NCBI GenBank assembly: GCA_964530615.1
Contig: CAZHAR010000025.1
Span: 2,129 to 66,128 of the forward strand
Length of the DNA: 64,000 bases
Source: an uncultured Planctomycetota bacterium
GTDB taxonomy: Bacteria; Planctomycetota; JBBTDB01
Direction: 5' to 3'
The notes beneath the pieces were generated by a model. The model was not told the DNA's origin, ran no database searches, and worked only from the letters and a program-made list of their open reading frames with translations. How positions within the stretch are numbered: position 1 is the stretch's first letter; every line of letters begins with the position of its first letter. A program made the position numbers and the translations under genes. Below, in pieces: positions 12,770 to 43,233 of this stretch.

Positions 12770-15700
12770 CTATGGTTGATACGTAAAACAATAACGAAAC
12801 CCTATCGTTAAATGAAAATAATCTTGTGGACCATTGGTACGAAAGGCACATTCCAGACCAATGGGCGTCAATCCCCAAGCGTTTCCCCGAATGATATGTA
12901 GAACCTCCCGTTCTTTTTCTTGGTTCGCGGACTTTGCACTTTCTGGATCAAAAAAACCTTCAACCCATTCCGCCACACTTCCTGCCAGATGATGAACTCC
13001 AAAAGGAGACTCATCTTTAGTTTTGTTTTCATCCTTATTTTCCAGTTCCGACCAACTCATTCCTCCATAGCCCTGCGTCAATCGAGCAAATTCTGGATGG
13101 AAATGGTTTCCCCAACTATATTTTCGACCATCGACTCCACGAGCGGCCAGTTCCCATTCTTCTTCGTTAGGGAGTCGGTAAGGTTTTTGATCTCGTTGGG
13201 ATATCCAGGCGATATAGGCTTGAGTATCCAAATAAGAAATGCCACCCAATGGAAGCGATTTCCAATTTTTCCAAGCGTTCCAAGTCTGTAATTCAAAAAC
13301 TTTTAGTATAGAGAGTTTAGAATCATATTCCAACCCTAAAGAAATATTTTTTTCAACAAGTTTCCAGGAAGTTTCCGTCAAAGAGGTTATTTTTGTTGAA
13401 TCTTCAAGCGGTTTTTTATTTTTTTCAACAAGCATTTCTTTTAGGGGGGATGGAATTTTTCCCTGTTTCAGATCCTGTGAAAAATTTTCGTTCCAAGCAC
13501 ACGAAAATAAGGGTGCCGGAATGAGTTTAGGGTTATACTTCAAAAATTTTCCTTTATCTGTCTTTTGTGGCTTCCCTTCTTGATCTTTGTGGATTTCTAG
13601 GAGTTTCCATTTAAAGCTTCGCGGAATTCTTTGTTCCGCTTCCTCAAATTTTTCAGACTCGCAGAGGTGTTCCAAAAATTCGGTATATTCGACTAGAGGG
13701 ACTTCTTCTGTTTTCAAAAAAAACCCGTCTTTGGTTTTTTTCCAGAGTTGAGCGCCTGCGCCTGCGGAGGATTCTCCACCCGATAAAAATCGCATCTGCG
13801 GAATATAAGTAAACCCTGGAACGGCTTGAGTTTTCGGAATCATCCCAACAACCAAAGGTTCTAACGGTTTTGGCTGAAGTTCTGGATGTTGGATCCATAC
13901 AGGAACCCTTAATATCAGGAAATCTGGATTTTTCAAGATGGCTAGATAGCTTCCCGGTTCTAAATCGGCGAGGATGAGTTTTCCTGTCGCATCTGTTTCT
14001 CCCCAAAGAGATTCCAGCGCTAAAGAGAGTTCATAAAAAGAATTCTCAATCACTTCTTTGGTTTCAATTGGGTTCTGAGAGAGTGCTTTCGGGTTTGTAT
14101 AAGGAGTTGGGTTCAAATACCTGTCTTTTTCTAGATAGCGGAACAAATACACTTTTGTTTTTGGCTGAGTTTGGAGAGTGAAGTTTTGTCGGCCTTCAAT
14201 CTTTTTTTCAAAATCACTGCCAGCGTAAGCGGTTCCAAGGTAATCTTGAAGGTCATATCGAGAGGAATAAACGAGTTGATCATTTTTCTGAGTTAGGCCA
14301 ATTTTCCAGAGTTTAAACGAAATCTCTGCAAGTTTTTGTCTGGCTTGTAGATGATGAAAATCGAAATCCAGCACTTTGCGATAGGCTTCCAGAATTTCCC
14401 GATATTTGTTGGATAACAGAGTCTGCTGATCCATTTTTTTGTAGAGATCCGTGGTTTGTTTGGGGAGTCCTGCTTCCCAGGTTTCGATTTTTTGAGACAG
14501 CGCATCCCCTGCCTTCAGATAGTCCTGAATCACGGAACGGTGATATTGATTCCAGAGAACTGTTAAAGAAACGAGGAGCAGTACAAAGGAGAGCGTCATC
14601 CATTTTAACGCAGTGGCATGGCGATGCGCTTTCCTGCGAAGTTTTCGCCCTAGCGAATCGGGCAAGGCGGAAACTTCTTTTCCTTCGAGGAAGCACTGCA
14701 CATCCTTAATCATAGCCGCAACCGAAGGATATCGATTTTCTTTTTCTTTTTCGAGTGCCTTCAGGGTAATCGCAACGAGTTCACGAGGAAGATGGCGAAT
14801 AATTTTTTCTGGAGAGAGAACGGGTTCATTCACCACCTGAGCCAGAACCGTTCGGACATCGCCTTTCGTGCCAAACGGAGGTTGCAAAGTCAACAGTTCG
14901 TATAAGATAGCGCCAAGACTATAGATATCGCTTCGTTCGTCAAGACTTTCAACTTCGCCTAAAGCTTGTTCTGGAGGCATATAAGCAGGGGTTCCGACCA
15001 CGGAGCCTAACATCGTTTTTGATCCATGAGTTTGACGAACGGTTTCAACGGCGTCGGTACTCGTAGGCAAATTTTCTTTTTTTCCAAGAACCTTCGCTAA
15101 ACCCCAATCCATCACAATGACTTCACCAAAGGCGCCCATCATAATATTTCCAGGCTTGAGATCCCGATGAATCACTCGTTTGGAATGAGCGAAACTGAGG
15201 GCATGTCCGATTTGTTGAAAAATTTGTAAAAATCGTGTCAACGAAAATTCTTCTCCGTGAAAAGTGGCTGATTTTTTTTCGCGTAAAATATCTTCCAGCG
15301 TTTTCCCCTTGATAAATTTCATGGTAAAGAAAAGATTTCCTTCTATATCCAGTCCGATATCGTGAATGGGAATAATATTAGGATGTTCTAGTTGTCCAGT
15401 GGTTTGGGCCTCTTCCGCAAACCGCTCCAAAATTTCTTGTTGTTTCTGATATTGAGGTAAAATATATTTTCGGGCAATGTGGCGGTTCAGATCGTTATCT
15501 TTTACGAGATCGACACGGCCCATTCCTCCTTCAGCAATTTCTTGAATATAAGTATATTTATCCGAAGTGATCGGCGAGGCACTGATATTTTGTTTTTGAG
15601 ATAAATCGAGGCTCTGGCGCAAGAATTTTTTCGCAAAGAGTTCATAAATAACGCTAGGATGCTTACTGACTTTTTTTACAGGCGGATTTTTAGGGGAGGT

Positions 15701-15943
15701 TCCGGGAGGTTTTTTGAAAAGAGAAGAAGCGGATTTCGGCGAAAGCGGGTGGGAAGGCGTTAGAATCGTTTTCGATTCGTGGATATCAGAAGGTGAAGCG
15801 GAATTGATCAGGACGGTCGCGTTCGTTTCTGGGGAAGGAACCTCAATGATTGTTTGGATCGGATTGAGCTCTTTTCCCGGAGTAGGAATCCCCGATGAAC
15901 TGGGTTGAGCAGACGGGGTATTTAATAGATTGGGATCGGTCAT
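12770..15943 (-). CDS. Hanks-type Ser/Thr protein kinase with a TM helix and a C-terminal FGE-sulfatase (SUMF1) domain
   Basis: Kinase motifs IAEGGMGRV, HRDLKPGNIM, DWGLAK and GTPAYMPPEQ. FGE motifs YRLPNEEEWELAARG and RGNAW...GFR. Confidence 0.92.
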   Translation of the reverse strand: MTDPNLLNTPSAQPSSSGIPTPGKELNPIQTIIEVPSPETNATVLINSASPSDIHESKTILTPSHPLSPKSASSLFKKPPGTSPKNPPVKKVSKHPSVIYELFAKKFLRQSLDLSQKQNISASPITSDKYTYIQEIAEGGMGRVDLVKDNDLNRHIARKYILPQYQKQQEILERFAEEAQTTGQLEHPNIIPIHDIGLDIEGNLFFTMKFIKGKTLEDILREKKSATFHGEEFSLTRFLQIFQQIGHALSFAHSKRVIHRDLKPGNIMMGAFGEVIVMDWGLAKVLGKKENLPTSTDAVETVRQTHGSKTMLGSVVGTPAYMPPEQALGEVESLDERSDIYSLGAILYELLTLQPPFGTKGDVRTVLAQVVNEPVLSPEKIIRHLPRELVAITLKALEKEKENRYPSVAAMIKDVQCFLEGKEVSALPDSLGRKLRRKAHRHATALKWMTLSFVLLLVSLTVLWNQYHRSVIQDYLKAGDALSQKIETWEAGLPKQTTDLYKKMDQQTLLSNKYREILEAYRKVLDFDFHHLQARQKLAEISFKLWKIGLTQKNDQLVYSSRYDLQDYLGTAYAGSDFEKKIEGRQNFTLQTQPKTKVYLFRYLEKDRYLNPTPYTNPKALSQNPIETKEVIENSFYELSLALESLWGETDATGKLILADLEPGSYLAILKNPDFLILRVPVWIQHPELQPKPLEPLVVGMIPKTQAVPGFTYIPQMRFLSGGESSAGAGAQLWKKTKDGFFLKTEEVPLVEYTEFLEHLCESEKFEEAEQRIPRSFKWKLLEIHKDQEGKPQKTDKGKFLKYNPKLIPAPLFSCAWNENFSQDLKQGKIPSPLKEMLVEKNKKPLEDSTKITSLTETSWKLVEKNISLGLEYDSKLSILKVFELQTWNAWKNWKSLPLGGISYLDTQAYIAWISQRDQKPYRLPNEEEWELAARGVDGRKYSWGNHFHPEFARLTQGYGGMSWSELENKDENKTKDESPFGVHHLAGSVAEWVEGFFDPESAKSANQEKEREVLHIIRGNAWGLTPIGLECAFRTNGPQDYFHLTIGFRYCFTYQP

Positions 15944-28584: not shown

Positions 28585-29058
28585 TTAGTCTTTGTGAAAG
28601 GTAATTTGTCCTTCTGGAAGAAAATAAAGAATCAACATCTTTCCCTCAATCACCGTAGGAATATGAGTTGATTTGGGTGGATAAATAGTCCATCCCGGAG
28701 GATTTCCGTCAAATTTAGGAGTGCCCTCAAGGGCAAAACAAAGATCGATTTCCCCTAACGGGTGCGTGTGTTTGGGTCCGGGACCATTCATCATAACCGC
28801 ATCGACGGCATATCGTTTTTCATTTTCTTCGGGCTTAATGACACGAGAAAAACGAATATTCCCGTTGCTTTTGTGACAAATCCACCCTTCATTGATGCCA
28901 GATTGAGCGAGTCGAAAGACTTCCTGAATAAAAGGATTTTCGAGCGAATATTGTTGCTCTAGCGATTTCTTGCATTGTTTGGGTTGTTCTAAATTAAGGG
29001 TGCTACTATAAAGAATCATTGATCTGAGGTGCGCTTCCAAAGCCTCACGTGTTGCCAT
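28585..29058 (-). CDS. DUF4863/PnbB-like cupin protein
   Basis: Motifs GPKHTHPLGEIDLC, FDGNPPGW and STHIPTV..GKMLILYFLPEG. Confidence 0.8.
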   Translation of the reverse strand: MATREALEAHLRSMILYSSTLNLEQPKQCKKSLEQQYSLENPFIQEVFRLAQSGINEGWICHKSNGNIRFSRVIKPEENEKRYAVDAVMMNGPGPKHTHPLGEIDLCFALEGTPKFDGNPPGWTIYPPKSTHIPTVIEGKMLILYFLPEGQITFHKD

Positions 29059-29126
29059 AGATCTCTCCGTTTATCCTGATATTTGATGAAAACGTAGAGT
29101 ATACCTTTCTCGGATAAAAACAAAAA

Positions 29127-30632
29127 TTATTTTTTTTGATTTGGATTCATCGGGGGAGCCGGTGGATTGGGTCGAGCTGGATATTTTGACGGAACTCCAG
29201 TTCCGGTAGGTGGCGGTGCGTAGGCAGGCGGTTTTTGAAAGGAACCTGACGCATAACCCGATCCGGTCGTGGGAGGCGTCTGCCCTCCGGGTAAAGGCGG
29301 GCGATAAGGAGATTGTTGCGGATTTCCTTGTGAATTGCCATAAGGAGGAGGTGAGGAATAGGTTCCCGGCTGATTTTGTGGTTTTGGATAGGCACCCGGA
29401 GGGGTTCCCGGTGTCGAATGAAATGAACCTTGGGTTTGCTGTGGATTATAAGTTCCCGGAGGATGTTGTTGAAGGGTGGATCCTTGGTTTTGAGAATAAG
29501 GCGTTCCGGGACGTCCCACATTTTGGTTTGCCTGAGGGTAAGAAGGTTGCATTCCAGGATTTGCAGGGTTTCCATAGTGAGGTGGAGGCGTTTGCGGACG
29601 TCCTTGTTGAGGGTTATATTGTTGAGGAGAAGCGTTTCCGCCCCAATAGGCTCCCTGAGGATTAGTCACATTTCCGGGAGAATAAGCAGGTTGTTGTGGA
29701 TACCCGGGGGGTTGTTGTGGAGGATATCCATAAGGAGGTGGATTATTATAAGGAGCGGGATTCGTCTGAGGTTGATAGGCGGGCGGTTGGGTCGTGGTTG
29801 GAAACGCGTTTCCATACCCGGGGGGTTGTTGTGGAGGATATCCATAAGGAGACTGCGGAGTATAGGATGGAGGTTGTCCTTGTCCTTGTCCTTGATAGGG
29901 CTGTGGAGTCTGATAGGGTGAAGCGTTGGTGCCATAATTGGAAGAAGAATTGTTATTTTGAGGATAATTCTGGATTGGACTTCCGACAGGCGCAGAAGGC
30001 ATCTTAGGAGCGATTCGGGAACCCCGATTTTGAGAAGTGTTGATATTGGCGTTTCCCGACAATTTTTCAAGAACTAAAGTCGCGATCGCTTTCAATGTTT
30101 CAAAAACACCCGTTCCTTTAAAAGCGACGGCTTCAACGGCAGGGACATGATATTTATTCAACGCATCGTTCATTTCTTGAACGGTATGAATATTTGGAAG
30201 ATCTCGTTTATTGTATTGCAAAACAAAAGGGATTTTGGACAATTCAATTTCATGCTCTTTTAAATTATCTTCCAGATTTTTGAGCGACTCTAGATTTTCT
30301 TTCATTTTCTCTTTTTGAGAATCCGCAACAAAAACGAGACCATCCGCGCCCGTGAGTACCAATTTTCGGGTGGCGTTATAATACGCCTGTCCAGGAACGG
30401 TATAAAGTTGAAATTTTGTTGCCATTCCTGCAATCTGGCCCAAATCTAAAGGTTTATAGTCGAAATAAAGTGTGCGATCTCCTTCAGTGGCAATTGACGT
30501 TAGATTCCCTTTATCTTGATTGGGATCTTTCTCGTGGATAATTTCTAAATTGGTGGTTTTTCCACTTAATCCCGGTCCATAAAAAACAACCTTGCAAGAG
30601 ATTTCTCTCCGGGCGTAATTAATTTGAGGCAT
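29127..30632 (-). CDS. mglA: MglA-family small Ras-like GTPase with an approximately 300-aa Pro/Gln/Tyr/Gly-rich C-terminal extension
   Basis: Motifs KVVFYGPGLSGKTTN, TEGDRTLYFD, YTVPGQAYYNATR and QYNKRDL. Confidence 0.9.
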   Translation of the reverse strand: MPQINYARREISCKVVFYGPGLSGKTTNLEIIHEKDPNQDKGNLTSIATEGDRTLYFDYKPLDLGQIAGMATKFQLYTVPGQAYYNATRKLVLTGADGLVFVADSQKEKMKENLESLKNLEDNLKEHEIELSKIPFVLQYNKRDLPNIHTVQEMNDALNKYHVPAVEAVAFKGTGVFETLKAIATLVLEKLSGNANINTSQNRGSRIAPKMPSAPVGSPIQNYPQNNNSSSNYGTNASPYQTPQPYQGQGQGQPPSYTPQSPYGYPPQQPPGYGNAFPTTTQPPAYQPQTNPAPYNNPPPYGYPPQQPPGYPQQPAYSPGNVTNPQGAYWGGNASPQQYNPQQGRPQTPPPHYGNPANPGMQPSYPQANQNVGRPGTPYSQNQGSTLQQHPPGTYNPQQTQGSFHSTPGTPPGAYPKPQNQPGTYSSPPPYGNSQGNPQQSPYRPPLPGGQTPPTTGSGYASGSFQKPPAYAPPPTGTGVPSKYPARPNPPAPPMNPNQKK

Positions 30633-30827
30633 AAATATTTTCCACCATAAAGGTTATACGTGATTTCTTGCGATTTTCAGCAGGTAAGCCGTGATCAATT
30701 TGTTTAAGGAGCCAGAATCAAGAATTTTTTTGAAAGAAGTTGTTTCTTCCTTGCGAGCAGAGGCTCCCTTTTATAAAATAAGTTCTAAATTTTACCCGAA
30801 ATCACACCCAAGAACCAAATTTCTCTG

Positions 30828-31921: not shown

Positions 31922-33187
31922 TCATTTTTTTCCCCAGTCCCTCCATTTTTGGAGGGATTCTTTTTGTAAATCAGGAGATTTTGACGGATCATATCCAAAA
32001 GAATTTGGGTTCCAGCGAGTTAAGAGGGCAAAGGCCAAACACCGTTGGGGATAAGCTGAACTTTGGAGGAACTCTACTAGGGGAAGAAGGCTCTCCTTGG
32101 AGTTAAAATCTTCTTTTAAGACAAAACAGGCAAACCAAAATACTCCGAAGTCAGGGTCTTGAAGAGCCTGACGAAAAATTTTTTCTTTACTTTCGATCGA
32201 GAGTGTCCGAATTTTTTTGAGTGCGCTTAATCTTGTGGTTGGCTGGGGATCTTTTGTCGCTTCTAGAATAAAGAGAAGAAGTGTTTCTTCTGAAATAAGT
32301 GGAGTTGTTTCTTCGAGAAACAAGCGAGCCACCGTATCTTCTATTGAAGAAGTATTTAAGGGCGAGGGCTGAAAAACCGAAAAAGAAACGTAGTAAACCG
32401 ATCCTCCCAAAAGGAGGGGAATCCCTGCAATCAAGAGAATACTTTTTTTAGACTTGGATTTTCCTTCTAAATAGCGCGCGAGAACGATGCCTACTTGATA
32501 GAGCAAAATCATAGGAATGGCGACCAAAGTTTGTGTAACCGCATCCGGTGGCGTCAAAATCGCGGCTAAAATAAAAGCGAAAAGAATAAAAAATCGGAAT
32601 TGTTTTTGAAAGGTTTCGGATTGAACGATTTTAGCCTGGCTCAAAAAGCCCATAATAATGGGAACTTCAAACGTGATGCCCAAAACAAAGGCCATTACTA
32701 AAAAAAACGTAAAATATTCATCGATGCTAATTAAAGGCTCAATAAATCGATTTTCTGGAGAATTTCCGTAAGCAATTAAAAAGCGTAATCCAAAGGGAAG
32801 CACCAAAAAATAGAAAAAAAGAACTCCCAGAAGGAAACAAATGATGGAGAGTGGTGCGAATAAGTAGATGTATTTTTTTTCTTCGGTATAGAGTCCAGCA
32901 CCAATAAAGGACCATCCTTGATAGAAAATAAAAGGGCTGGAAAAAAAGAACCCGGTGAGTAACGCCACTTTTAAATGAGCGAGAAATGCGCCGGAGATGT
33001 TGCTTTGAACGACTCGTGGCATATATCCCTGTTCTTTCATTACTTGAAGGAAGGGATTCACAATCATTTTGAGGAGTGTATCGGCGTAATAGAAACAAAT
33101 ACAGGTCGTTACTAAGAGTGCCAAAAAAGAAAAAATAACTCTTAATCGAAGTTCCTCTAAATGTTCCCCCAGTGTCATCGTTTTCAT
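31922..33187 (-). CDS. tatC: Twin-arginine translocase subunit TatC with an extra TM helix and a HEAT-like C-terminal domain
   Basis: Motifs MTLGEHLEELR.R, FI..GLY..EKK, FEVP and AAILTPPD...Q..VAIPM.LLY. Confidence 0.92.
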   Translation of the reverse strand: MKTMTLGEHLEELRLRVIFSFLALLVTTCICFYYADTLLKMIVNPFLQVMKEQGYMPRVVQSNISGAFLAHLKVALLTGFFFSSPFIFYQGWSFIGAGLYTEEKKYIYLFAPLSIICFLLGVLFFYFLVLPFGLRFLIAYGNSPENRFIEPLISIDEYFTFFLVMAFVLGITFEVPIIMGFLSQAKIVQSETFQKQFRFFILFAFILAAILTPPDAVTQTLVAIPMILLYQVGIVLARYLEGKSKSKKSILLIAGIPLLLGGSVYYVSFSVFQPSPLNTSSIEDTVARLFLEETTPLISEETLLLFILEATKDPQPTTRLSALKKIRTLSIESKEKIFRQALQDPDFGVFWFACFVLKEDFNSKESLLPLVEFLQSSAYPQRCLAFALLTRWNPNSFGYDPSKSPDLQKESLQKWRDWGKK

Positions 33188-33280: not shown

Positions 33281-34564
33281 TTAGTCTTTTCCAAGCAATC
33301 GTAGAATATCAATTTCTCTTAGGACTTCGATATCATAACGGAGTCCATCGATATAGTTTGGATGGCTTTCGTAGTCTTTTCCAATAATGATGTAAGAGGT
33401 TCGAACATCGGTTTTTTGTGTCACTTTCCAACCTAACTCTTCGATCATTTTAGCCACTTCTTCGTTTGAATAGCGTCCGACTAAACGACCGGCGAACGTA
33501 AAATATTGGGTTTTAGTCACATCAAAAACTTCGTTGACGATTTGATCTGCGATATCGATGGGATATTCTGTATCCAGATTTTGAGTGATCGCGACAATAG
33601 ACATTTCGTCCAAGACTTTTTTAACTTCAATTTCGCCTTTATCGGAGCGGACCCCTTTCTTCCCAAAGCGGAAGACAGAGAATTTTTGACCGACCGAAAC
33701 TCCGGATTCGCGACCAATATTGATGTAGGCCACACGGTTGGGAAAGTCTACAAAAACGACCTGTCCATCGGGAGCGTTGGGGGCTTCTGCTATTTTTTCC
33801 GAAATAGGGCTTTCCGGTTCTGGATTTTTAATTTTAGCGACGCGATCCAAAACTTCTTCCAACTTGCCTTCCAATTCTATTTTTTCTAAGCGAAATTGTC
33901 CTTTGATGTTGTTTATTTCATCTTTCGCTTCGTTCTTTTCTCGGCGGGCGTTTTCCCGATCGATCATCAAGTTTGCAATTTCTTCCTGCATTAGTTTTTC
34001 TGCGGCGGCTTTATCTTGCAAAAGTTGTTCTACACGAGATTTTTGAATTTTCAAATTCTCTTGTTTGCTACTGCGTTCGGTAGCCACTTCTTTAATTTTT
34101 TGTTCCAGAGCTTCCCGACTCGTTTTTTGTATTTCTTCTTCTTTTTTGATGCGATCTTTAAAGTAAAGAATATAAGATTGGACATTGGCATCCGCTCTTA
34201 ACTCATAGATAGTATCTAATCCGGGAGTTTTAGGATAAATGGGAGTTCCTTCACGACTGGTATTGACGCGTTCTATCCAGGCAAGAAGTGATTCTATAGG
34301 GGTCTGGTTTTCGTCTTTTCGAAAACCGACGCCACAAAGATTTTGCAAAGTCTCTGATTGTCGCTTGACCTCTTCGATTTCGGTTAGAAGTCGGGTGACT
34401 TTTTCGCTACTGGAAACTTTATCTAATTTCAAATCTGAGAGTTCTTTATTGGCGCGAGCGACGCTATCGTGAATGATATACCAAGCATAAATTGTTCCGA
34501 TCAATAAAGTCAGAACAATAACTGCTGGAATAGGTGAAATTCCTTGTTTAGAGCGATATCTCAT
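33281..34564 (-). CDS. Membrane-anchored coiled-coil protein with a beta-barrel domain and a C-terminal BRCT-like domain (paralog 2)
   Basis: N-terminal TM helix; long heptad region; DGQVV..D...AYINIG..GV..GQKF; FAG...YSNEEVAKMIEELGWKV...TSYIIIG. Confidence 0.7.
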   Translation of the reverse strand: MRYRSKQGISPIPAVIVLTLLIGTIYAWYIIHDSVARANKELSDLKLDKVSSSEKVTRLLTEIEEVKRQSETLQNLCGVGFRKDENQTPIESLLAWIERVNTSREGTPIYPKTPGLDTIYELRADANVQSYILYFKDRIKKEEEIQKTSREALEQKIKEVATERSSKQENLKIQKSRVEQLLQDKAAAEKLMQEEIANLMIDRENARREKNEAKDEINNIKGQFRLEKIELEGKLEEVLDRVAKIKNPEPESPISEKIAEAPNAPDGQVVFVDFPNRVAYINIGRESGVSVGQKFSVFRFGKKGVRSDKGEIEVKKVLDEMSIVAITQNLDTEYPIDIADQIVNEVFDVTKTQYFTFAGRLVGRYSNEEVAKMIEELGWKVTQKTDVRTSYIIIGKDYESHPNYIDGLRYDIEVLREIDILRLLGKD

Positions 34565-34576
34565 GACTGTTTCTCC

Positions 34577-36031
34577 TCAATCTCCGACGTATTGAATAAA
34601 ATCTATATCTCGTACGACTTCGAGTCCCATTTCAAGGGCTTTTTTGAAATTAGGATCTTCGTCTAACCACCAAAAATCTTTTTTATCTTCCTCGACTGCG
34701 GCGGCCGCTTTGCCGTCTTCTCCTTCAGCATCAGGAGCGCCTTCGGTTTTCTTAAACGTTTTGTGTGCTTCAATACCGCCAGCAACTAGGATATCGGTGC
34801 GAACGGTGACTGTGGGTTTTCCTTCGCTATCCATTTCCACTTTGGCGCCGATATCTTCGCAAAAACGAATCATATCTTTTACTTTGAATCGGGACCCAAA
34901 GGTTTCGCCAGCAAAAGCGATGTATTTTGGATGTTCAGCATCCCACATAGGGTTCAAGAGATAATCTCCGGTAATGATGGGGTCGTATTTATCGAGTTCT
35001 TCCAAAATCACTACGCGACTCATATCTTCTTCCACTTGGTTGACTTCCACTTTCCCTTTGTAGCGAATTTGGCGTTCAGAACCATAACGGAAGACCATAA
35101 ATTTGAGTCCTTTGACCACATTCTTACGAGAACCGATATTGATATGGGTTAAACGGGTAATCGGATCGGAATAAACAATTTCGCCATCGGGCTCTTCATA
35201 GGATAATTTAAATAATTTCGCCGTTTTTTCAGAAGAAATTTTATCGGGTCGTTTTCCCAATTTTCGTTGACGAATCAAGATTTTAATTTCCTGACGTTGG
35301 CTACTGAGTTTAGAGCGCAACTGAGACAAAACACGTTTATTTTTCTTTTTAACGTCTTCGATTTGGGTTTTTATTTCGCGAGCCACATTGTAGGCTTCTT
35401 CTTTTTCGGTCGTGAGTTTAGTCACCATCTCTGCTTTTTTGGAATTAATTTGATTGATTTCTTCTTCTAAAGCGGCAATTCTGGCGACGAGAATAGAACT
35501 ACGATCATCTTTTTGAGAGCGTTCTTCATCTAAATAAGCTCGTGTTTTTTCAACATCGCTATTGAGAATAGCATTTTGTTCAAGCACGTTGGCATAATGA
35601 GGTTGAAGGGCCTCTATAAGCGTATGGAGATTCAAAGTTAAAGTGACCGGAATAGCTTCTTCTTCAACAAAGTCAATCTTCCCAACAAGTGCGGGATATT
35701 TGTAGTTTTGATTGTCGTCTTTTTCTCCTGCAAAAGACTTCAAGGTTTCTTTGACATCAGCGATTCTGATGGATTCTCCGGCTCCGATTTGAAAACCGAA
35801 TCCCATCAAGTTAGAAATTCCAGTGACTTCTTGCACGATGCTCAGTTTTTGCTGTTTTAGGATATCCATATCCTTTCCAGGCGGCATCTTTTCCGCGTCA
35901 TGGTTTTTCAGGCGGAGTTGGACCTGCGTAAATTTGTCGTAATCATTATAAGTAAATGCACCCATAATTAAGGTGAACGCAATGAATAGAACTAGAGGAA
36001 TTGGCGAATCCCCTCGCTTAGAACCAAACAT
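34577..36031 (-). CDS. Membrane-anchored coiled-coil protein with a beta-barrel domain and a C-terminal BRCT-like domain (paralog 1)
   Basis: Same architecture: DGEIV..D...THINIG..NV..GLKF and FAGE...FKVKDMIRFCEDIGAKV...TDILVAG. Confidence 0.7.
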   Translation of the reverse strand: MFGSKRGDSPIPLVLFIAFTLIMGAFTYNDYDKFTQVQLRLKNHDAEKMPPGKDMDILKQQKLSIVQEVTGISNLMGFGFQIGAGESIRIADVKETLKSFAGEKDDNQNYKYPALVGKIDFVEEEAIPVTLTLNLHTLIEALQPHYANVLEQNAILNSDVEKTRAYLDEERSQKDDRSSILVARIAALEEEINQINSKKAEMVTKLTTEKEEAYNVAREIKTQIEDVKKKNKRVLSQLRSKLSSQRQEIKILIRQRKLGKRPDKISSEKTAKLFKLSYEEPDGEIVYSDPITRLTHINIGSRKNVVKGLKFMVFRYGSERQIRYKGKVEVNQVEEDMSRVVILEELDKYDPIITGDYLLNPMWDAEHPKYIAFAGETFGSRFKVKDMIRFCEDIGAKVEMDSEGKPTVTVRTDILVAGGIEAHKTFKKTEGAPDAEGEDGKAAAAVEEDKKDFWWLDEDPNFKKALEMGLEVVRDIDFIQYVGD

Positions 36032-36991: not shown

Positions 36992-38887
36992 GTGAATTCA
37001 AATAGACCTAAATTAACCACCGAAGAAGAAAAAAATGGTGCTGCTTCTCCAGATATCGATATGGACGAGCCGGATTTGCCACCCTCCGAAATCGGCGCAG
37101 ATTTTTCTCCAGAAGAAGATCCAGAACTCAAAGAAAAGAAAACGAAAAAAAATAAACCACGCCTTAAAAGTACGCTCCCAAAAGCAAAAACAAAATCAAA
37201 AAAAGAAAAAGAATTTGAAGAAAATCAAGAAATATCCACTCCATTACTTTCTGAAGAATTTACGGAACTCTTCCCCACCCATCTTCCTTCTCCCATTGAA
37301 ATTCACACTCCGCCCAAAACTCTTTTTCCAGAACTTTCCGCGCCGATTGAACCCCTTCCAAAAAAAGAAGTTTTAGCACCCCTCAACCCTATCCCTAAAA
37401 TTCCTTCTGTTCTCCATTCTGGGGAACCCGCTTCTCCTCAACAAGAGAATAGTGGCCCTGAGCCCGAAGAAAAATTCCCAAGGTATCCAAAAAAGAATCG
37501 CCCCTTTCGACAAGAAAAACGGGATTTTCAAGAAGAGGTTTCTTCGGATTCTCATGAAAACGATATCCCTTCTCCCTTTAAATATTCCCATAAAACGGAA
37601 CCCTACGAAACTCAAGAACGAAGCGAAATTCATCTAAATACCCTTCAAATATTGTCGCTAGAAAATTTACAAGAACTCGCCACAAAAAATAATCTTCAAA
37701 ATTATAAAAATCTGAAAAAAGAGGAACTCATCGTCCTTATTTTGAAAGAACAAGCTAAAAATAATGGACTTTTTTATGGAGAAGGGGTCCTAGAAATTCT
37801 CTCCGAAGGATTCGGTTTTCTCCGATCGTCTCGAAATAATTATCGTCCGGCGATGGATGATATTTATGTTTCTCCTTCACAAATCGCTCGCTTTAAAATG
37901 ATTACAGGTTCTACGATCTCTGGACAAATTCGGGCGCCCAAAGAAAACGAAAAGTTTTTTGCGCTTTTGAGAGTCGAATCCATTGATTTTAATAGCGTAG
38001 AAAATCAATTTATTCGAAAACCTTTTGACGTCCTAACCCCCCTTTACCCAAATTCACGACTCAAATTGGAAGTCGATTCTCCAGAGGATTGCTCCATGCG
38101 ACTCGTTGATTTGGTTTCTCCCATTGGAAAGGGTCAACGCGGATTAATTGTGGCACCTCCTCGTACTGGAAAAACGGTTTTATTACAACAAATTGCGAAT
38201 TCTCTGACCAAAAATCATCCCGAGATCATTCTCATTGTTCTCCTGATTGATGAACGTCCTGAAGAAGTAACGGATATGCAACGCTCGGTTCGTGGAGAAG
38301 TTATTTCTTCGACCTTTGATGAACCCGCTTCTCGTCATATTCAAGTGGCAGAAATGGTTCTGGAAAAAGCGAAACGTCTCGTCGAGTGCCGTAAAGATGT
38401 GGTCATTCTCCTAGACTCAATTACCCGTTTAGGACGAGCCTATAATACGGAGGCGCCTCATAGCGGGAAGATTCTCACCGGAGGAATTGATTCCGAAGCT
38501 TTACAAAAACCGAAACGTTTTTTTGGCGCGGCTCGCAATATCGAAAACGGAGGTTCTCTCACCATTCTTGCCACAGCACTCATTGATACGGGTTCAAAAA
38601 TGGATGAAGTCATTTTTGAAGAATTCAAGGGAACTGGAAATATGGAACTCTATCTGGATCGTCGCATCGCAGACAAACGAATTTTTCCCGCGATTGATAT
38701 TCAACGATCGGGTACTCGAAAAGAAGAATTGCTTCTCGAAGAAGAAGAACTCAAAAAAATCTGGTTGCTTCGTAAAGTTTTAATGGAAATGCAAGTCATT
38801 GATGCGATAGAAAAACTCAAAGAACGTGTGCGTCGCTCTAAAACCAATAAAGATTTTCTCCTGTCGCTGACTCCCGGAATTTCGTAA
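36992..38887 (+). CDS. rho: Transcription termination factor Rho with a long disordered N-terminal extension
   Basis: Motifs [46 protein letters not shown] and [11 protein letters not shown]. Confidence 0.97.
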
Positions 38888-42129: not shown

Positions 42130-43233
42130 TTAGAAGCTGAAATCGAAATCCGTGGCTTTTGAGCCTTTATTAATTCCACGAATCGCCATCTTTAATTCAT
42201 CCGGCTTATCGGAAGCGCCCATCGCATCTTCTAGAGAAATAAATTCTCCTTTATAGAGGACTAACAGGGATTGATTAAAGGTTTGAGAGCCATAGTATTC
42301 GCCTTCTTCCATACATTTGGGAAGATCTTTGGTTTTTCCTTCGTACAGAAGTTCTCGCATCGAGGGAGAGGCCATTAAAATTTCGACCGCTGGAACACGT
42401 CCTAATCCTACTTTTTTCTTAATTAACCGCAAAGAAACAATTCCAGCAATGGTAAGCGAAAGCTGTGTTCTGAGCAAGCCATGTTGATGCGGAGGGAAGT
42501 ACGACATAATGCGTTCGACCGTTTGTGTTGCGTTAATTGTATGGAGTGTTGAATACAAAACGTGTCCGGTTTCCGCGGCATGAATCGCCGCTTCAATCGT
42601 CAGAACATCGCGCATTTCTCCCACAAGAATCATGTCTGGAGATTGACGCATCGCGTGTTTCAAGGCGTGGGAAAAAGAATGGGTATCAATTCCGACTTCG
42701 CGTTGTGAAATAATGCATTTTTTTTCTTGATGGATAAATTCGACCGGATCTTCAACCGTAACAAGGTGTCGACTTGTCATACGATTGGCATAATCTAGCA
42801 TTGCGGCAAGTGTTGTCGATTTTCCAGAACCTGCAATTCCTGTGATCAGAACCATTCCTCGGTGGAGCAGTGCGAGTTTTTCCATGGGTTCACGAGGTAA
42901 GTGAAGTTCTTCAAAAGGAGGAATTCGGCTATTAATATGACGAAAAACAAATCCAAGTTCGCCTTGTTGAACATAGACGTTGACGCGAAAACGTCCGACC
43001 CCTTGGCAGATATAAGAAGTATCCGCTTCTTTTCCTTTTTGAAAATCATCCCACATTCCTTCTTCCACAATCGCTTCAAAAAGGGAACGAGAAAACTCTC
43101 TTGTGGTGGGTTGCTCCTCTAAAAAGCGAATTTTCCCATCGATTCGAGCCGAGGGACGACTTCCTGTTTTTATGAAAAGGTCGGACGCATTTTCTTGCAC
43201 CATACGGCGAAAGTAAGTATTAACATCAATCAC
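42130..43233 (-). CDS. pilT: PilT/PilU-family type IV pilus retraction ATPase
   Basis: Walker A GIAGSGKSTT; TVEDPVEF; SQREVG; ILVGEMRD; AAETGH..YSTLHT. Confidence 0.88.
   Translation of the reverse strand: MIDVNTYFRRMVQENASDLFIKTGSRPSARIDGKIRFLEEQPTTREFSRSLFEAIVEEGMWDDFQKGKEADTSYICQGVGRFRVNVYVQQGELGFVFRHINSRIPPFEELHLPREPMEKLALLHRGMVLITGIAGSGKSTTLAAMLDYANRMTSRHLVTVEDPVEFIHQEKKCIISQREVGIDTHSFSHALKHAMRQSPDMILVGEMRDVLTIEAAIHAAETGHVLYSTLHTINATQTVERIMSYFPPHQHGLLRTQLSLTIAGIVSLRLIKKKVGLGRVPAVEILMASPSMRELLYEGKTKDLPKCMEEGEYYGSQTFNQSLLVLYKGEFISLEDAMGASDKPDELKMAIRGINKGSKATDFDFSF

Follow-up and report, generated by a model that had tools for sequence, protein, structure and literature searches.

A 64,000-nucleotide (nt) stretch of DNA from an uncultured Planctomycetota bacterium (contig CAZHAR010000025.1; hereafter the window) encodes a 501-amino-acid (aa) GTPase of the MglA family that carries a 306-aa, probably disordered C-terminal tail. 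Work on bacterial cell polarity has taken MglA as its model small GTPase, which up to now has been regarded as soluble, about 195 aa long and paired with MglB. We found that the nearest relatives of the window protein are long-tailed as well, that their tails end in a predicted membrane anchor and that mglB lies directly downstream of their genes, whereas the window protein and its closest orthologues have neither feature and are alone in carrying evenly spaced Tyr residues (Met in one of them) along the tail. We tentatively prefer the explanation, which we rate a little short of an even chance, that a membrane leash may have been converted into a multivalent docking or self-association module.

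The gene is a single-frame open reading frame (ORF) on the minus strand. The initial annotation of this DNA had already described an MglA core followed by a long low-complexity tail, which agrees with the intact core and the 306-aa tail reported here. The interval that it gave, 29127–30053, comprises the tail-coding part and the stop codon, but the whole gene extends over 29127–30632. The gene and its GTPase core have the following features.

29127–30632, minus strand: complete long-tailed MglA-family GTPase gene, 501 aa, with the stop codon TAA at 29129–29127
30641–30646, minus strand: Shine-Dalgarno-like GGTGGA, 8 nt before the ATG, read from the sequence
30054–30632, minus strand: GTPase core, aa 1–193, from phmmer against MglA structures in the PDB, AlphaFold2 and the ratio of nonsynonymous to synonymous substitution rates (dN/dS)
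30555–30578, minus strand: G1/P-loop GPGLSGKT, aa 19–26, with Gly21 kept, from the translation
30474–30476, minus strand: Arg53, at the position of the intrinsic arginine finger of MglA, from alignment to DRTLFFD of Myxococcus xanthus MglA
30387–30401, minus strand: G3 motif TVPGQ, aa 78–82, with Thr78 where Ras has Asp and the catalytic Gln82, from alignment
30201–30212, minus strand: G4 motif NKRD, aa 141–144, from alignment

Residues 3–192 of the core aligned end to end and without gaps with the M. xanthus MglA structures 5ymx, 6h17 and 6hjh (phmmer, E = 2.4e-73), and the Thermus thermophilus MglA structure 3t12 was matched at E = 6e-64. AlphaFold2 arranged the strands and helices of the core in a Ras-like manner, with a predicted local distance difference test (pLDDT) score of 75–93. 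Searches of Pfam and NCBIfam returned only generic Arf, Ras and small_GTP matches for the core and no match for the tail. When the window protein was aligned with 23 homologues, G19, P20, G21, G24, K25 and T26 of the P-loop (GxxxxGK[ST], including Gly21) were invariant, as were Arg53 (DRTLYFD in the window protein, aligned with M. xanthus DRTLFFD), all five residues of the G3 motif (T78, V79, P80, G81 and Q82, in the form TxxGQ) and N141, K142, R143 and D144 of the NKxD motif. The roles of Arg53 and Gln82 in MglA have been described (PMC4316618). The core dN/dS against P0002, the closest orthologue introduced below, was 0.026. By every sequence criterion of the family the window protein is an MglA-family switch, and with its catalytic residues intact and strongly constrained it is predicted to be a catalytically competent GTPase.

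A length of about 195 aa, which had been taken as normal for MglA, holds for the proteins studied so far but not for the best homologues of this one. All of the best 120 homologues in a collection of 5.8 billion proteins carried tails, of 90–330 aa, and in a filter-free search with the core only the best 150 cluster representatives were 244–717 aa long (median 442), none of them being 240 aa or shorter. Tailed clusters are over-represented in the latter search owing to clustering at 50% identity; the nearest relatives are still unambiguously tailed. Because every one of these homologues and representatives is tailed, the long tail appears to be ancestral here and not an oddity. The unusual feature of the window protein is not the length of the tail, as had been supposed, but the lack of mglB together with the lack of an anchor, both of which are present in the relatives.

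In 101 of the 120 best homologues a hydrophobic segment of at least about 19 residues was found, mostly within about 20 residues of the C-terminus, which is the topology of a tail anchor. The class was surveyed in the relatives P0005–P0120 and P0241–P0386, in 80 tabulated loci from GTDB species representatives (L002–L081) and, as an independent sample, in 80 metagenome loci (L087–L166). In metagenome-assembled genomes (MAGs) of Planctomycetota, the core is followed by a net basic linker of 115–320 aa rich in Ala, Pro and Gly and then by a C-terminal transmembrane helix. In Zixibacteria, Ignavibacteria, Fibrobacterota, Chitinispirillales and one Brocadiia MAG, a linker of 100–450 aa leads to a basic amphipathic end, for example KKRGFFKRLFGLK or NKPGFLKRLFGNK. 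The tails of the Fibrobacterota, Ignavibacteria and Zixibacteria, members of the Fibrobacteres–Chlorobi–Bacteroidetes (FCB) group, end in GFLKRLFG or GFFKRLFG and essentially match the membrane-targeting sequence of Escherichia coli MinD, KGFLKRLFGG (PMC5471200). Myxococcota, Thermoanaerobaculia and Gemmatimonadota carried classical MglA of 192–210 aa.

Gene order differed between the two kinds of MglA as well. In the GTDB loci mglB was located directly downstream of long-tailed genes and upstream of short ones, six being confirmed as Robl_LC7 by Pfam; in the independent metagenome sample it was downstream of 29 of the 32 complete long-tailed genes and upstream in 41 of the 45 short MglAs. The survey of tailed homologues that had been proposed as a check thus found tails to be widespread among the relatives, but these tails end in a membrane anchor and are accompanied by a downstream mglB. 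The reference survey of prokaryotic small GTPases left out sequences longer than 240 aa (PMC4316618), which accounts for the absence of the class from it; at 501 aa the window protein also lies outside that survey's single-domain range of about 150–240 aa. We found no publication on a tailed, membrane-anchored or planctomycetal MglA in the literature searched, and the long-tailed membrane-anchored class appears to be undescribed.

The window protein departs from these relatives at its C-terminus. It ends in ..PPMNPNQKK, with neither a terminal transmembrane helix nor a MinD-like motif, and the most hydrophobic 19-residue Kyte-Doolittle window of its tail scored −0.33, compared with more than 1.9 in anchored relatives. 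Among the best 120 homologues, only P0001–P0004 were without a terminal anchor, an amphipathic end or a folded terminal domain. P0001 is a near-identical copy described below, and P0002 (497 aa, 68% identical overall), P0003 (464 aa) and P0004 (338 aa) are tailed orthologues from other samples, which share a synteny of TatC, a divergent cation-efflux gene, mglA and an alpha/beta-hydrolase gene.

The locus also has no mglB. The absence of an adjacent roadblock-domain gene, pointed out in the initial annotation, extends to the whole window: a 50-sequence MglB profile, run with filters off against the ORFs and the stop-to-stop six-frame translation of the 64 kb, gave a best match of E = 1, which is noise and gives no sign of a hidden or unannotated mglB in the window. 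The same profile gave no match better than E = 1 in loci L082–L086, including 21 kb around P0004, and Pfam scans of about 50 window ORFs returned neither a Robl_LC7 nor a receiver domain. As there is no roadblock gene within four genes, the window protein is an orphan MglA by the published definition (PMC4316618). The slot in which relatives carry mglB is occupied by another gene.

28585–29058, minus strand: PnbB-family (4-hydroxylaminobenzoate lyase-like) gene, 157 aa, co-oriented with and downstream of mglA; Pfam PF16155, E = 1.4e-35

This gene starts 68 nt downstream of mglA, with no terminator-like site in between. A divergent MglB was considered for the 157-aa product and ruled out, given the match to the PnbB family at E = 1e-35 and the lack of any match to the MglB profile. 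The PnbB-family gene holds the same position in the P0002 and P0003 loci (in the latter 13 nt after the mglA stop), is absent at the P0004 locus and adjoins no other MglA locus among L001–L081.

In neighbour-joining (NJ) trees of the core, the window protein formed a clade with P0002, P0003 and P0004 in every bootstrap replicate (200/200 and 100/100). This clade was sister to the anchored Planctomycetota group (171/200 and 92/100), and the two together joined the FCB group (145/200 and 80/100), so that the window core falls within the long-tailed branch at 86–92% NJ bootstrap. A metagenome scan yielded no further clade members, with no sequence closer than 66%, and a scan of GTDB representatives detected no genome with the window protein, the best match being 69%. 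RecA encoded in the window has relatives at 73–87% identity, beyond which identity drops to 65% in Planctomycetes MAGs; this marks the host as a deep, sparsely sampled groundwater lineage. The clade is small, rare, deep-branching and affiliated with Planctomycetota.

The features of the tail are given below.

29130–30053, minus strand: disordered C-terminal tail, aa 194–501, acid-free and rich in Pro, Gln, Gly, Asn, Tyr, Ser and Thr, from composition, AlphaFold2, selection and RNA contigs
29997–30026, minus strand: conserved island RGSRIAPKMP, aa 203–212, just past the core, from the clade alignment
29220–29873, minus strand: region with eight PPxY motifs (aa 254, 270, 283, 298, 308, 350, 428 and 468) and the majority of the evenly spaced Tyr residues, from shuffle statistics
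29814–29851, minus strand: direct repeat copy 2, 38 nt exact, encoding PYGYPPQQPPGY at aa 262–273, from a repeat search
29700–29737, minus strand: direct repeat copy 1, 38 nt exact, encoding PYGYPPQQPPGY at aa 300–311, from a repeat search
29130–29186, minus strand: conserved C-terminal peptide KYPARPNPPAPPMNPNQKK, aa 483–501, without a hydrophobic or amphipathic segment, from the clade alignment

Over aa 196–501 (306 aa) the tail consists of 25% Pro, 14% Gln, 11% Gly, 9.5% Asn, 9% Tyr, 8% Ser and 7% Thr. It has been called almost free of acidic residues, which understates the case: there is no Asp or Glu, and 12 Lys/Arg residues give a net charge of +12. Disorder prediction, another of the checks that had been proposed, bore out the expectation, as AlphaFold2 gave the tail no secondary structure and a pLDDT of about 37–55; the predicted disordered extension after the G domain thus amounts to 306 aa, compared with the 90 aa by which the tailed class can be delimited. 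No other ORF in the window had such a composition, the next best segment reaching 0.55 of Pro, Gln, Gly, Tyr and Asn against 0.83 in the tail, and a genome-wide linker style is ruled out for the window.

The aromatic residues of the tail are spaced far more evenly than its composition predicts. The coefficient of variation (CV) of the gaps between them was 0.46, compared with 0.90 in composition-preserving shuffles, none of 5000 shuffles was equally even, and the largest gap was 17 residues against 37 in the shuffles. Being disordered by prediction, low in charge, polar and aromatic with even aromatics, the tail has the composition of a sticker–spacer domain. PPxY motifs were also in excess (8 against 1.7 expected), a number reached by none of 2000 composition-preserving shuffles; two of them are PPPY (aa 298 and 428), as previously noted. 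PPG[YFWLM] occurred twice against 0.28 expected (P = 0.03). At the level of sequence, the comparison with galectin-3 and annexin A11 made in the initial annotation is apt in view of the aromatic CV and the PPxY excess.

Regular spacing of the aromatic or equivalent residues was found in all four clade members (CV 0.35–0.47 against about 0.9, P ≤ 0.0005 each) but in none of six other homologue tails, of which five have a transmembrane end and one, P0104, has none. Tyr-rich tails were limited to the window clade among the best 120 homologues and the 150 representatives of the core search. Tail identity to P0003 and P0004 is about 40%, and in P0004 the repeated residue is Met in place of Tyr, within PPPPGMRPGM repeats. 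PPxY numbered 6 against 1.8 expected in P0002, was unenriched in P0003 and did not occur in P0004, and PPG[WFYML] numbered 3 against 0.38 expected in P0003 and 6 against 0.26 in P0004. The exchange of Tyr for Met in P0004, giving PPGM repeats, is less easily reconciled with a strict PPxY/WW ligand than with a PPG-hydrophobic ligand or a generic sticker.

Tails of 270–306 aa are kept in three lineages of the clade, the cores of which are 82% identical; the tail of P0004 is 143 aa long. Both ends of the tail are conserved. The island past the core reads R[GV]SRIAPK[MR]P in the window protein, P0002 and P0003 and SKIAPR in P0004, and the C-terminal peptide is near-identical in P0002 (KYP[AT]RPNPP[AT]PP[ML]NPNQKK), with P0003 and P0004 likewise ending in basic residues (..EKK and ..ERK).

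An exact duplication within the tail had been reported before, and PYGYPPQQPPGY indeed occurs twice, but the repeat is 38 nt long at 29700–29737 and 29814–29851, not 37 nt at 29701–29737 and 29815–29851. The two copies are spaced 114 nt apart, and an exact 38-mer repeat inside 1 kb is far beyond chance. P0002 has both PYGYPPQQ units at the same positions in diverged form, and because of this the perfect identity in the window points to a recent homogenization of the copies. As to whether the whole tail could be a recent tandem repeat, Tandem Repeats Finder detected only a 21-nt (TTGTCC)n and no DNA-level array, so that this was rejected; the periodicity of the tail is a pattern of residues and not of DNA repeats.

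The tail is genuine. The identical 501-aa protein, with the same neighbours, is encoded on an independently assembled 6.4-kb aquifer contig (ERZ1292634), and Logan contigs from two groundwater DNA runs matched the locus without differences. In two metatranscriptome runs, for which DNA carry-over is possible, contigs covered 29824–30104, spanning the core–tail boundary at 30053/30054, and 29568–29714, within the tail. Over 279 aligned codons the tail is 68.5% identical to that of P0002 at the aa level, with a dN/dS of about 0.09 and synonymous sites near saturation (proportion of synonymous differences, 0.63–0.73); the tail dN/dS was 0.34–0.39 against P0003 and P0004. The tail is under purifying selection.

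P0001 (463 aa, locus L086) matches the window gene throughout, except that 114 nt are missing, exactly the stretch between corresponding points in the two repeat copies. Its contig has 3x coverage and derives from replicate sampling at the same aquifer site. In groundwater run X1 the repeat formed a unitig of its own at a depth of 8, about twice that of its flanks (about 4.5), and the spacer unitig had a depth of 3.3. The deletion could be a repeat-mediated population indel or an assembly collapse across the 38-nt repeat, and with this collapse possible on a 3x contig we set P0001 aside as evidence for natural length polymorphism.

Taken together, these observations suggest the following model. 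In the long-tailed MglA branch, the disordered C-terminal linker would tether the GTPase to the cytoplasmic membrane, by a transmembrane helix in Planctomycetota and by a MinD-like amphipathic helix in Fibrobacterota, Ignavibacteria and Zixibacteria. We infer that the common ancestor was membrane-tethered and that the window clade lost the anchor, as opposed to never having had one. The linker would then have been remodelled into an acid-free tail of about 300 aa with polyproline-like spacers, a single Tyr (Met in one relative) every ten residues or so and numerous PPxY or PPG-hydrophobic motifs. Such a tail may act as a multivalent low-affinity module that takes over the localizing job of the lost anchor and gathers the GTPase at a particular place in the cell (a pole, the base of a pilus or a budding site, for example), either by docking on partners that bind proline motifs, by Tyr-mediated self-association or by both. 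The retention of Arg53 and Gln82 suggests that a GTPase-activating protein (GAP) encoded elsewhere would control GTP hydrolysis.

Docking through proline-rich sequence has a precedent. In the MglA network of M. xanthus, the GYF domain of GltJ docks onto a proline-rich stretch in AglZ, and ZnR-GYF proteins are reported to be common in planctomycetes (PMC11135422). This pair resembles the proposed model in that a proline-rich sequence docks within an MglA-controlled assembly; it differs in that the M. xanthus sequence is on AglZ, not on MglA, and that no GYF protein was found in the window.

Several points weigh against the model. The inferred loss of the anchor depends on an NJ tree whose support is moderate and in which the window clade stands beside the anchored group as its sister and is not nested in it. 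Neither the 64-kb window nor the 21 kb around P0004 yielded a WW, GYF, GYF_2, SH3 or roadblock domain, and mglB or a second, anchored MglA may exist elsewhere in the genome, beyond the 64 kb. With dS saturated, the dN/dS values are approximate, and the even spacing of Tyr can also arise passively as an old short tandem repeat decays. Moreover, the bacterial GYF domain of GltJ binds by a non-canonical surface and does not bind the eukaryotic ligand, so that the PPG-hydrophobic rule may not apply (PMC11135422).

Self-association could also be the whole function of the tail. According to this explanation the anchor was swapped for a Tyr-periodic sticker–spacer tail of prion-like type that drives homotypic phase separation, and MglA would scaffold, nucleate or partition into a membraneless polar condensate, possibly in a nucleotide-state-dependent manner. 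We consider this possible but rather doubtful. Tyr makes up 9% of the tail and is more evenly placed than in any of the shuffles, acidic residues are absent, Gln, Asn, Ser, Gly and Pro serve as spacers, the spacing is kept in four lineages despite the low tail identity, and the tail is predicted to be disordered. Uniform aromatic patterning is a known signature of phase-separating prion-like domains, and the N-terminal domain of galectin-3 has a similar Pro/Gly/Tyr composition. Condensate formation is compatible with these sequence properties. On the other hand, a tail with 25% Pro and only about 10% aromatics should have a weak homotypic drive, and the replacement of Tyr by Met in P0004 weakens pi-type stickers while still fitting an array of peptide ligands. 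The enrichment of PPxY likewise points to recognition motifs and not to generic stickers. We know of no MglA for which phase separation has been shown.

It is unlikely that the tail is still a membrane tether, whether through direct binding to anionic membranes or through a minor readthrough or slippage at the A8-TAA stop that adds a hydrophobic end (KK, the stop and then FLFLSEKGILYVF). The net charge of +12 without Asp or Glu recalls the basic tails of the anchored relatives. Furthermore, the in-frame translation past the stop is hydrophobic in the window (29040–29129, minus strand), in P0002 (KK, the stop and then FLFLFQKLIRYFH; L084 1637–1700) and in P0004 (RK, the stop and then GKWKVYGNFFSAF; L082 11018–11070), and these peptides, with FLFL in the window and P0002 and GNFFSAF in P0004, resemble remnants of the basic amphipathic membrane-targeting ends of relatives. 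The 68-nt intergenic region is about 70% identical between the window and P0002, as estimated by eye, though synonymous sites are near saturation. However, T-rich intergenic DNA yields peptides rich in Phe and Leu in any frame, which is the simplest explanation of the post-stop hydrophobicity, and P0003 has nothing similar. UAA is the tightest stop codon, which weighs against readthrough, and the A-run was of constant length in the Logan contigs. With 12 Lys/Arg in 306 residues the tail has a low charge density, and the hydrophobicity of the tail nowhere exceeds the value of −0.33 given above.

We regard it as equally improbable that the tail is a functionless relic that has drifted since the anchor was lost, with a composition set by mutational bias and replication slippage. 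Low-complexity sequence, the exact 38-nt repeat and the 114-nt indel variant would suit such an origin, as would the high variability of tail length and composition across the family and the short tail (143 aa) of P0004. Against it, the tail dN/dS is below 1 in all three comparisons, tails of 270–306 aa have been retained in three lineages with cores that are only 82% identical, and no copy has a frameshift or a premature stop. The periodicity in four of four lineages and the conserved islands (RGSRIAPK and the C-terminal peptide) are also not what drift would leave. Lastly, a frameshift or assembly artefact, in which a normal 195-aa mglA is joined in silico to non-coding or out-of-frame low-complexity DNA and which the initial annotation had named as the outcome that would undo its proposal, is ruled out for practical purposes even though several alternative ORFs overlap the region in other frames and the source contigs have a coverage of only 3–5x, because the same unbroken ORF recurs in separate assemblies and samples, an RNA contig crosses the core–tail junction, the codons are under selection, orthologues at 68% and 49% identity keep the frame and every close relative is tailed.

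The explanation that we prefer, a leash turned into a docking or self-association module, can be set beside several known systems. The MglA–MglB pairs of M. xanthus and T. thermophilus (Group 1) resemble the window protein in their core, which is about 60% identical, and in the P-loop, Arg finger, TxxGQ and NKxD motifs. They differ in that those MglAs are soluble, about 195 aa long and encoded right after mglB, whereas the window protein has 501 aa, a 306-aa tail and no mglB within 64 kb. Bdellovibrio bacteriovorus MglA and M. xanthus SofG, the latter without an identified GAP, are the only characterized orphan MglAs (PMC4316618). Both are, like the product of the window gene, MglA-family switches not encoded beside mglB; in the window protein Gly21, Arg53 and Gln82 are all present, and its tail is far longer and of distinct composition. 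Bdellovibrio MglA is substituted at the position of Gly21; SofG, with its short extensions, functions together with bactofilins. The nearest relatives remain the long-tailed anchored MglAs of Planctomycetota and the FCB group, with 56–70% core identity and a disordered, net basic tail of 100–450 aa after the core; these have the transmembrane or GFLKRLFG end and the downstream Robl_LC7 gene, which the window clade lacks, and the window clade alone is Tyr-periodic.

FtsZ consists of a core, a long, variable and disordered C-terminal linker and a conserved terminal peptide for attachment. The FtsZ linker and the membrane-targeting sequences of MinD and FtsA share a design logic with tailed MglA, and the FCB tails carry a sequence of the MinD type; the protein families are unrelated, and all that the window protein has as a terminal element is a basic proline-rich peptide (..PPMNPNQKK). 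Eukaryotic Ras, Rho and Rab proteins have a hypervariable linker of 10–40 aa and a prenyl or palmitoyl anchor. The flexible C-terminal membrane tether is alike by analogy only, the linker of the MglA relatives being hundreds of residues long and their anchor a peptide, and the window clade being anchorless. The N-terminal domain of galectin-3, the low-complexity domain of annexin A11 and prion-like domains are disordered and uncharged and combine a high content of Pro, Gly, Tyr and Gln with regularly spaced aromatics. The composition of the tail is similar by analogy and not by homology, and one member of the window clade uses Met for Tyr. The window protein would come closest in function to a tethered switch whose tether has been exchanged for something else.

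Other unusual MglA architectures were encountered in the survey. Some MglAs of Acidobacteriota and Latescibacterota (L056, L058, L059, L060 and L078; P0364–P0379) have acidic tails of 170–410 aa that end in beta-strand-like sequence (..KLKITLDVNLLP or ..IRIVLDVRIEP), with no mglB within 10 kb; these may represent another undescribed architecture with a folded C-terminal domain. The tails of P0009, P0013, P0035, P0044 and P0050 have precomputed Pfam matches of SurA N-terminal-like type (PF13624 and PF13623) and no membrane anchor. A further group of anchorless MglAs of Planctomycetota type (P0104 and P0243; L088 and L090), 473–553 aa long, ends in ..F/Y-P-T-[RQ]-R-[ML]-P-[ML]-[NG]-P-G, which weakly recalls the ..YPARPNPPAPPMNPNQKK of the window protein, and has mglB directly downstream at L088 and L090. 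This group (..YPTxRxPMNPG) was considered as a specific sister of the window clade, for which the tree gives no support.

Pilus genes lie near two of the clade loci. A type IV pilus ATPase gene of PilT/PilU type (T2SSE, 367 aa) is located at 42130–43233 on the minus strand, 12 kb from mglA, and a Flp/Fap pilin gene is located 3.5 kb from the mglA orthologue of P0004 (L082 14464–14652). Judged from gene positions alone, this is compatible with a pilus-related role of MglA.

Among the remaining genes of the window, tatC (31922–33187, minus strand) encodes a Pfam match at aa 8–225 followed by a C-terminal extension of about 195 aa without a family match, and the TatC at the same position in the P0004 locus is similarly long (429 aa). 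Upstream of tatC, at 33281–36031 (minus strand), are two genes without a Pfam family (427 and 484 aa), the second of which is coiled-coil-like; at the same position in the P0004 locus (L082 4342–7177) are two Pfam-less genes of 448 and 489 aa, the likeness being one of size and position only. The Rho termination factor encoded at 36992–38887 (plus strand, 631 aa) has an N-terminal extension of about 217 aa ahead of Rho_N and is another housekeeping protein with a long extension. At 12770–15943 (minus strand) a 1057-aa fusion protein combines a Ser/Thr protein kinase (aa 130–405) with a C-terminal FGE-sulfatase domain (formylglycine-generating-enzyme-like, aa 772–1050). Four co-oriented ORFs at 529–3810 (minus strand; 278, 319, 327 and 143 aa) had no Pfam match at E ≤ 0.05 save a faint Caf1-like match in the last.

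The finding uncovers a large membrane-tethered branch of MglA in which the order of mglA and mglB is reversed, and this class-level observation would still stand if the tail of the window protein proved dispensable. If the tail localizes the switch by multivalent docking or condensation, the strategies by which small GTPases are localized would be exchangeable in evolution. In that case the tail would also be a tractable bacterial sticker–spacer domain on a well-understood enzyme and would open a way into polarity, pili and budding in poorly studied bacteria of the Planctomycetes–Verrucomicrobia–Chlamydiae (PVC) type. If it is specifically a condensate that the tail forms, the window clade and its anchored relatives would constitute a natural experiment comparing membrane and condensate tethering of a small GTPase, with the anchored relatives being a prokaryotic counterpart of the Ras/Rab design of a hypervariable region plus a lipid anchor.

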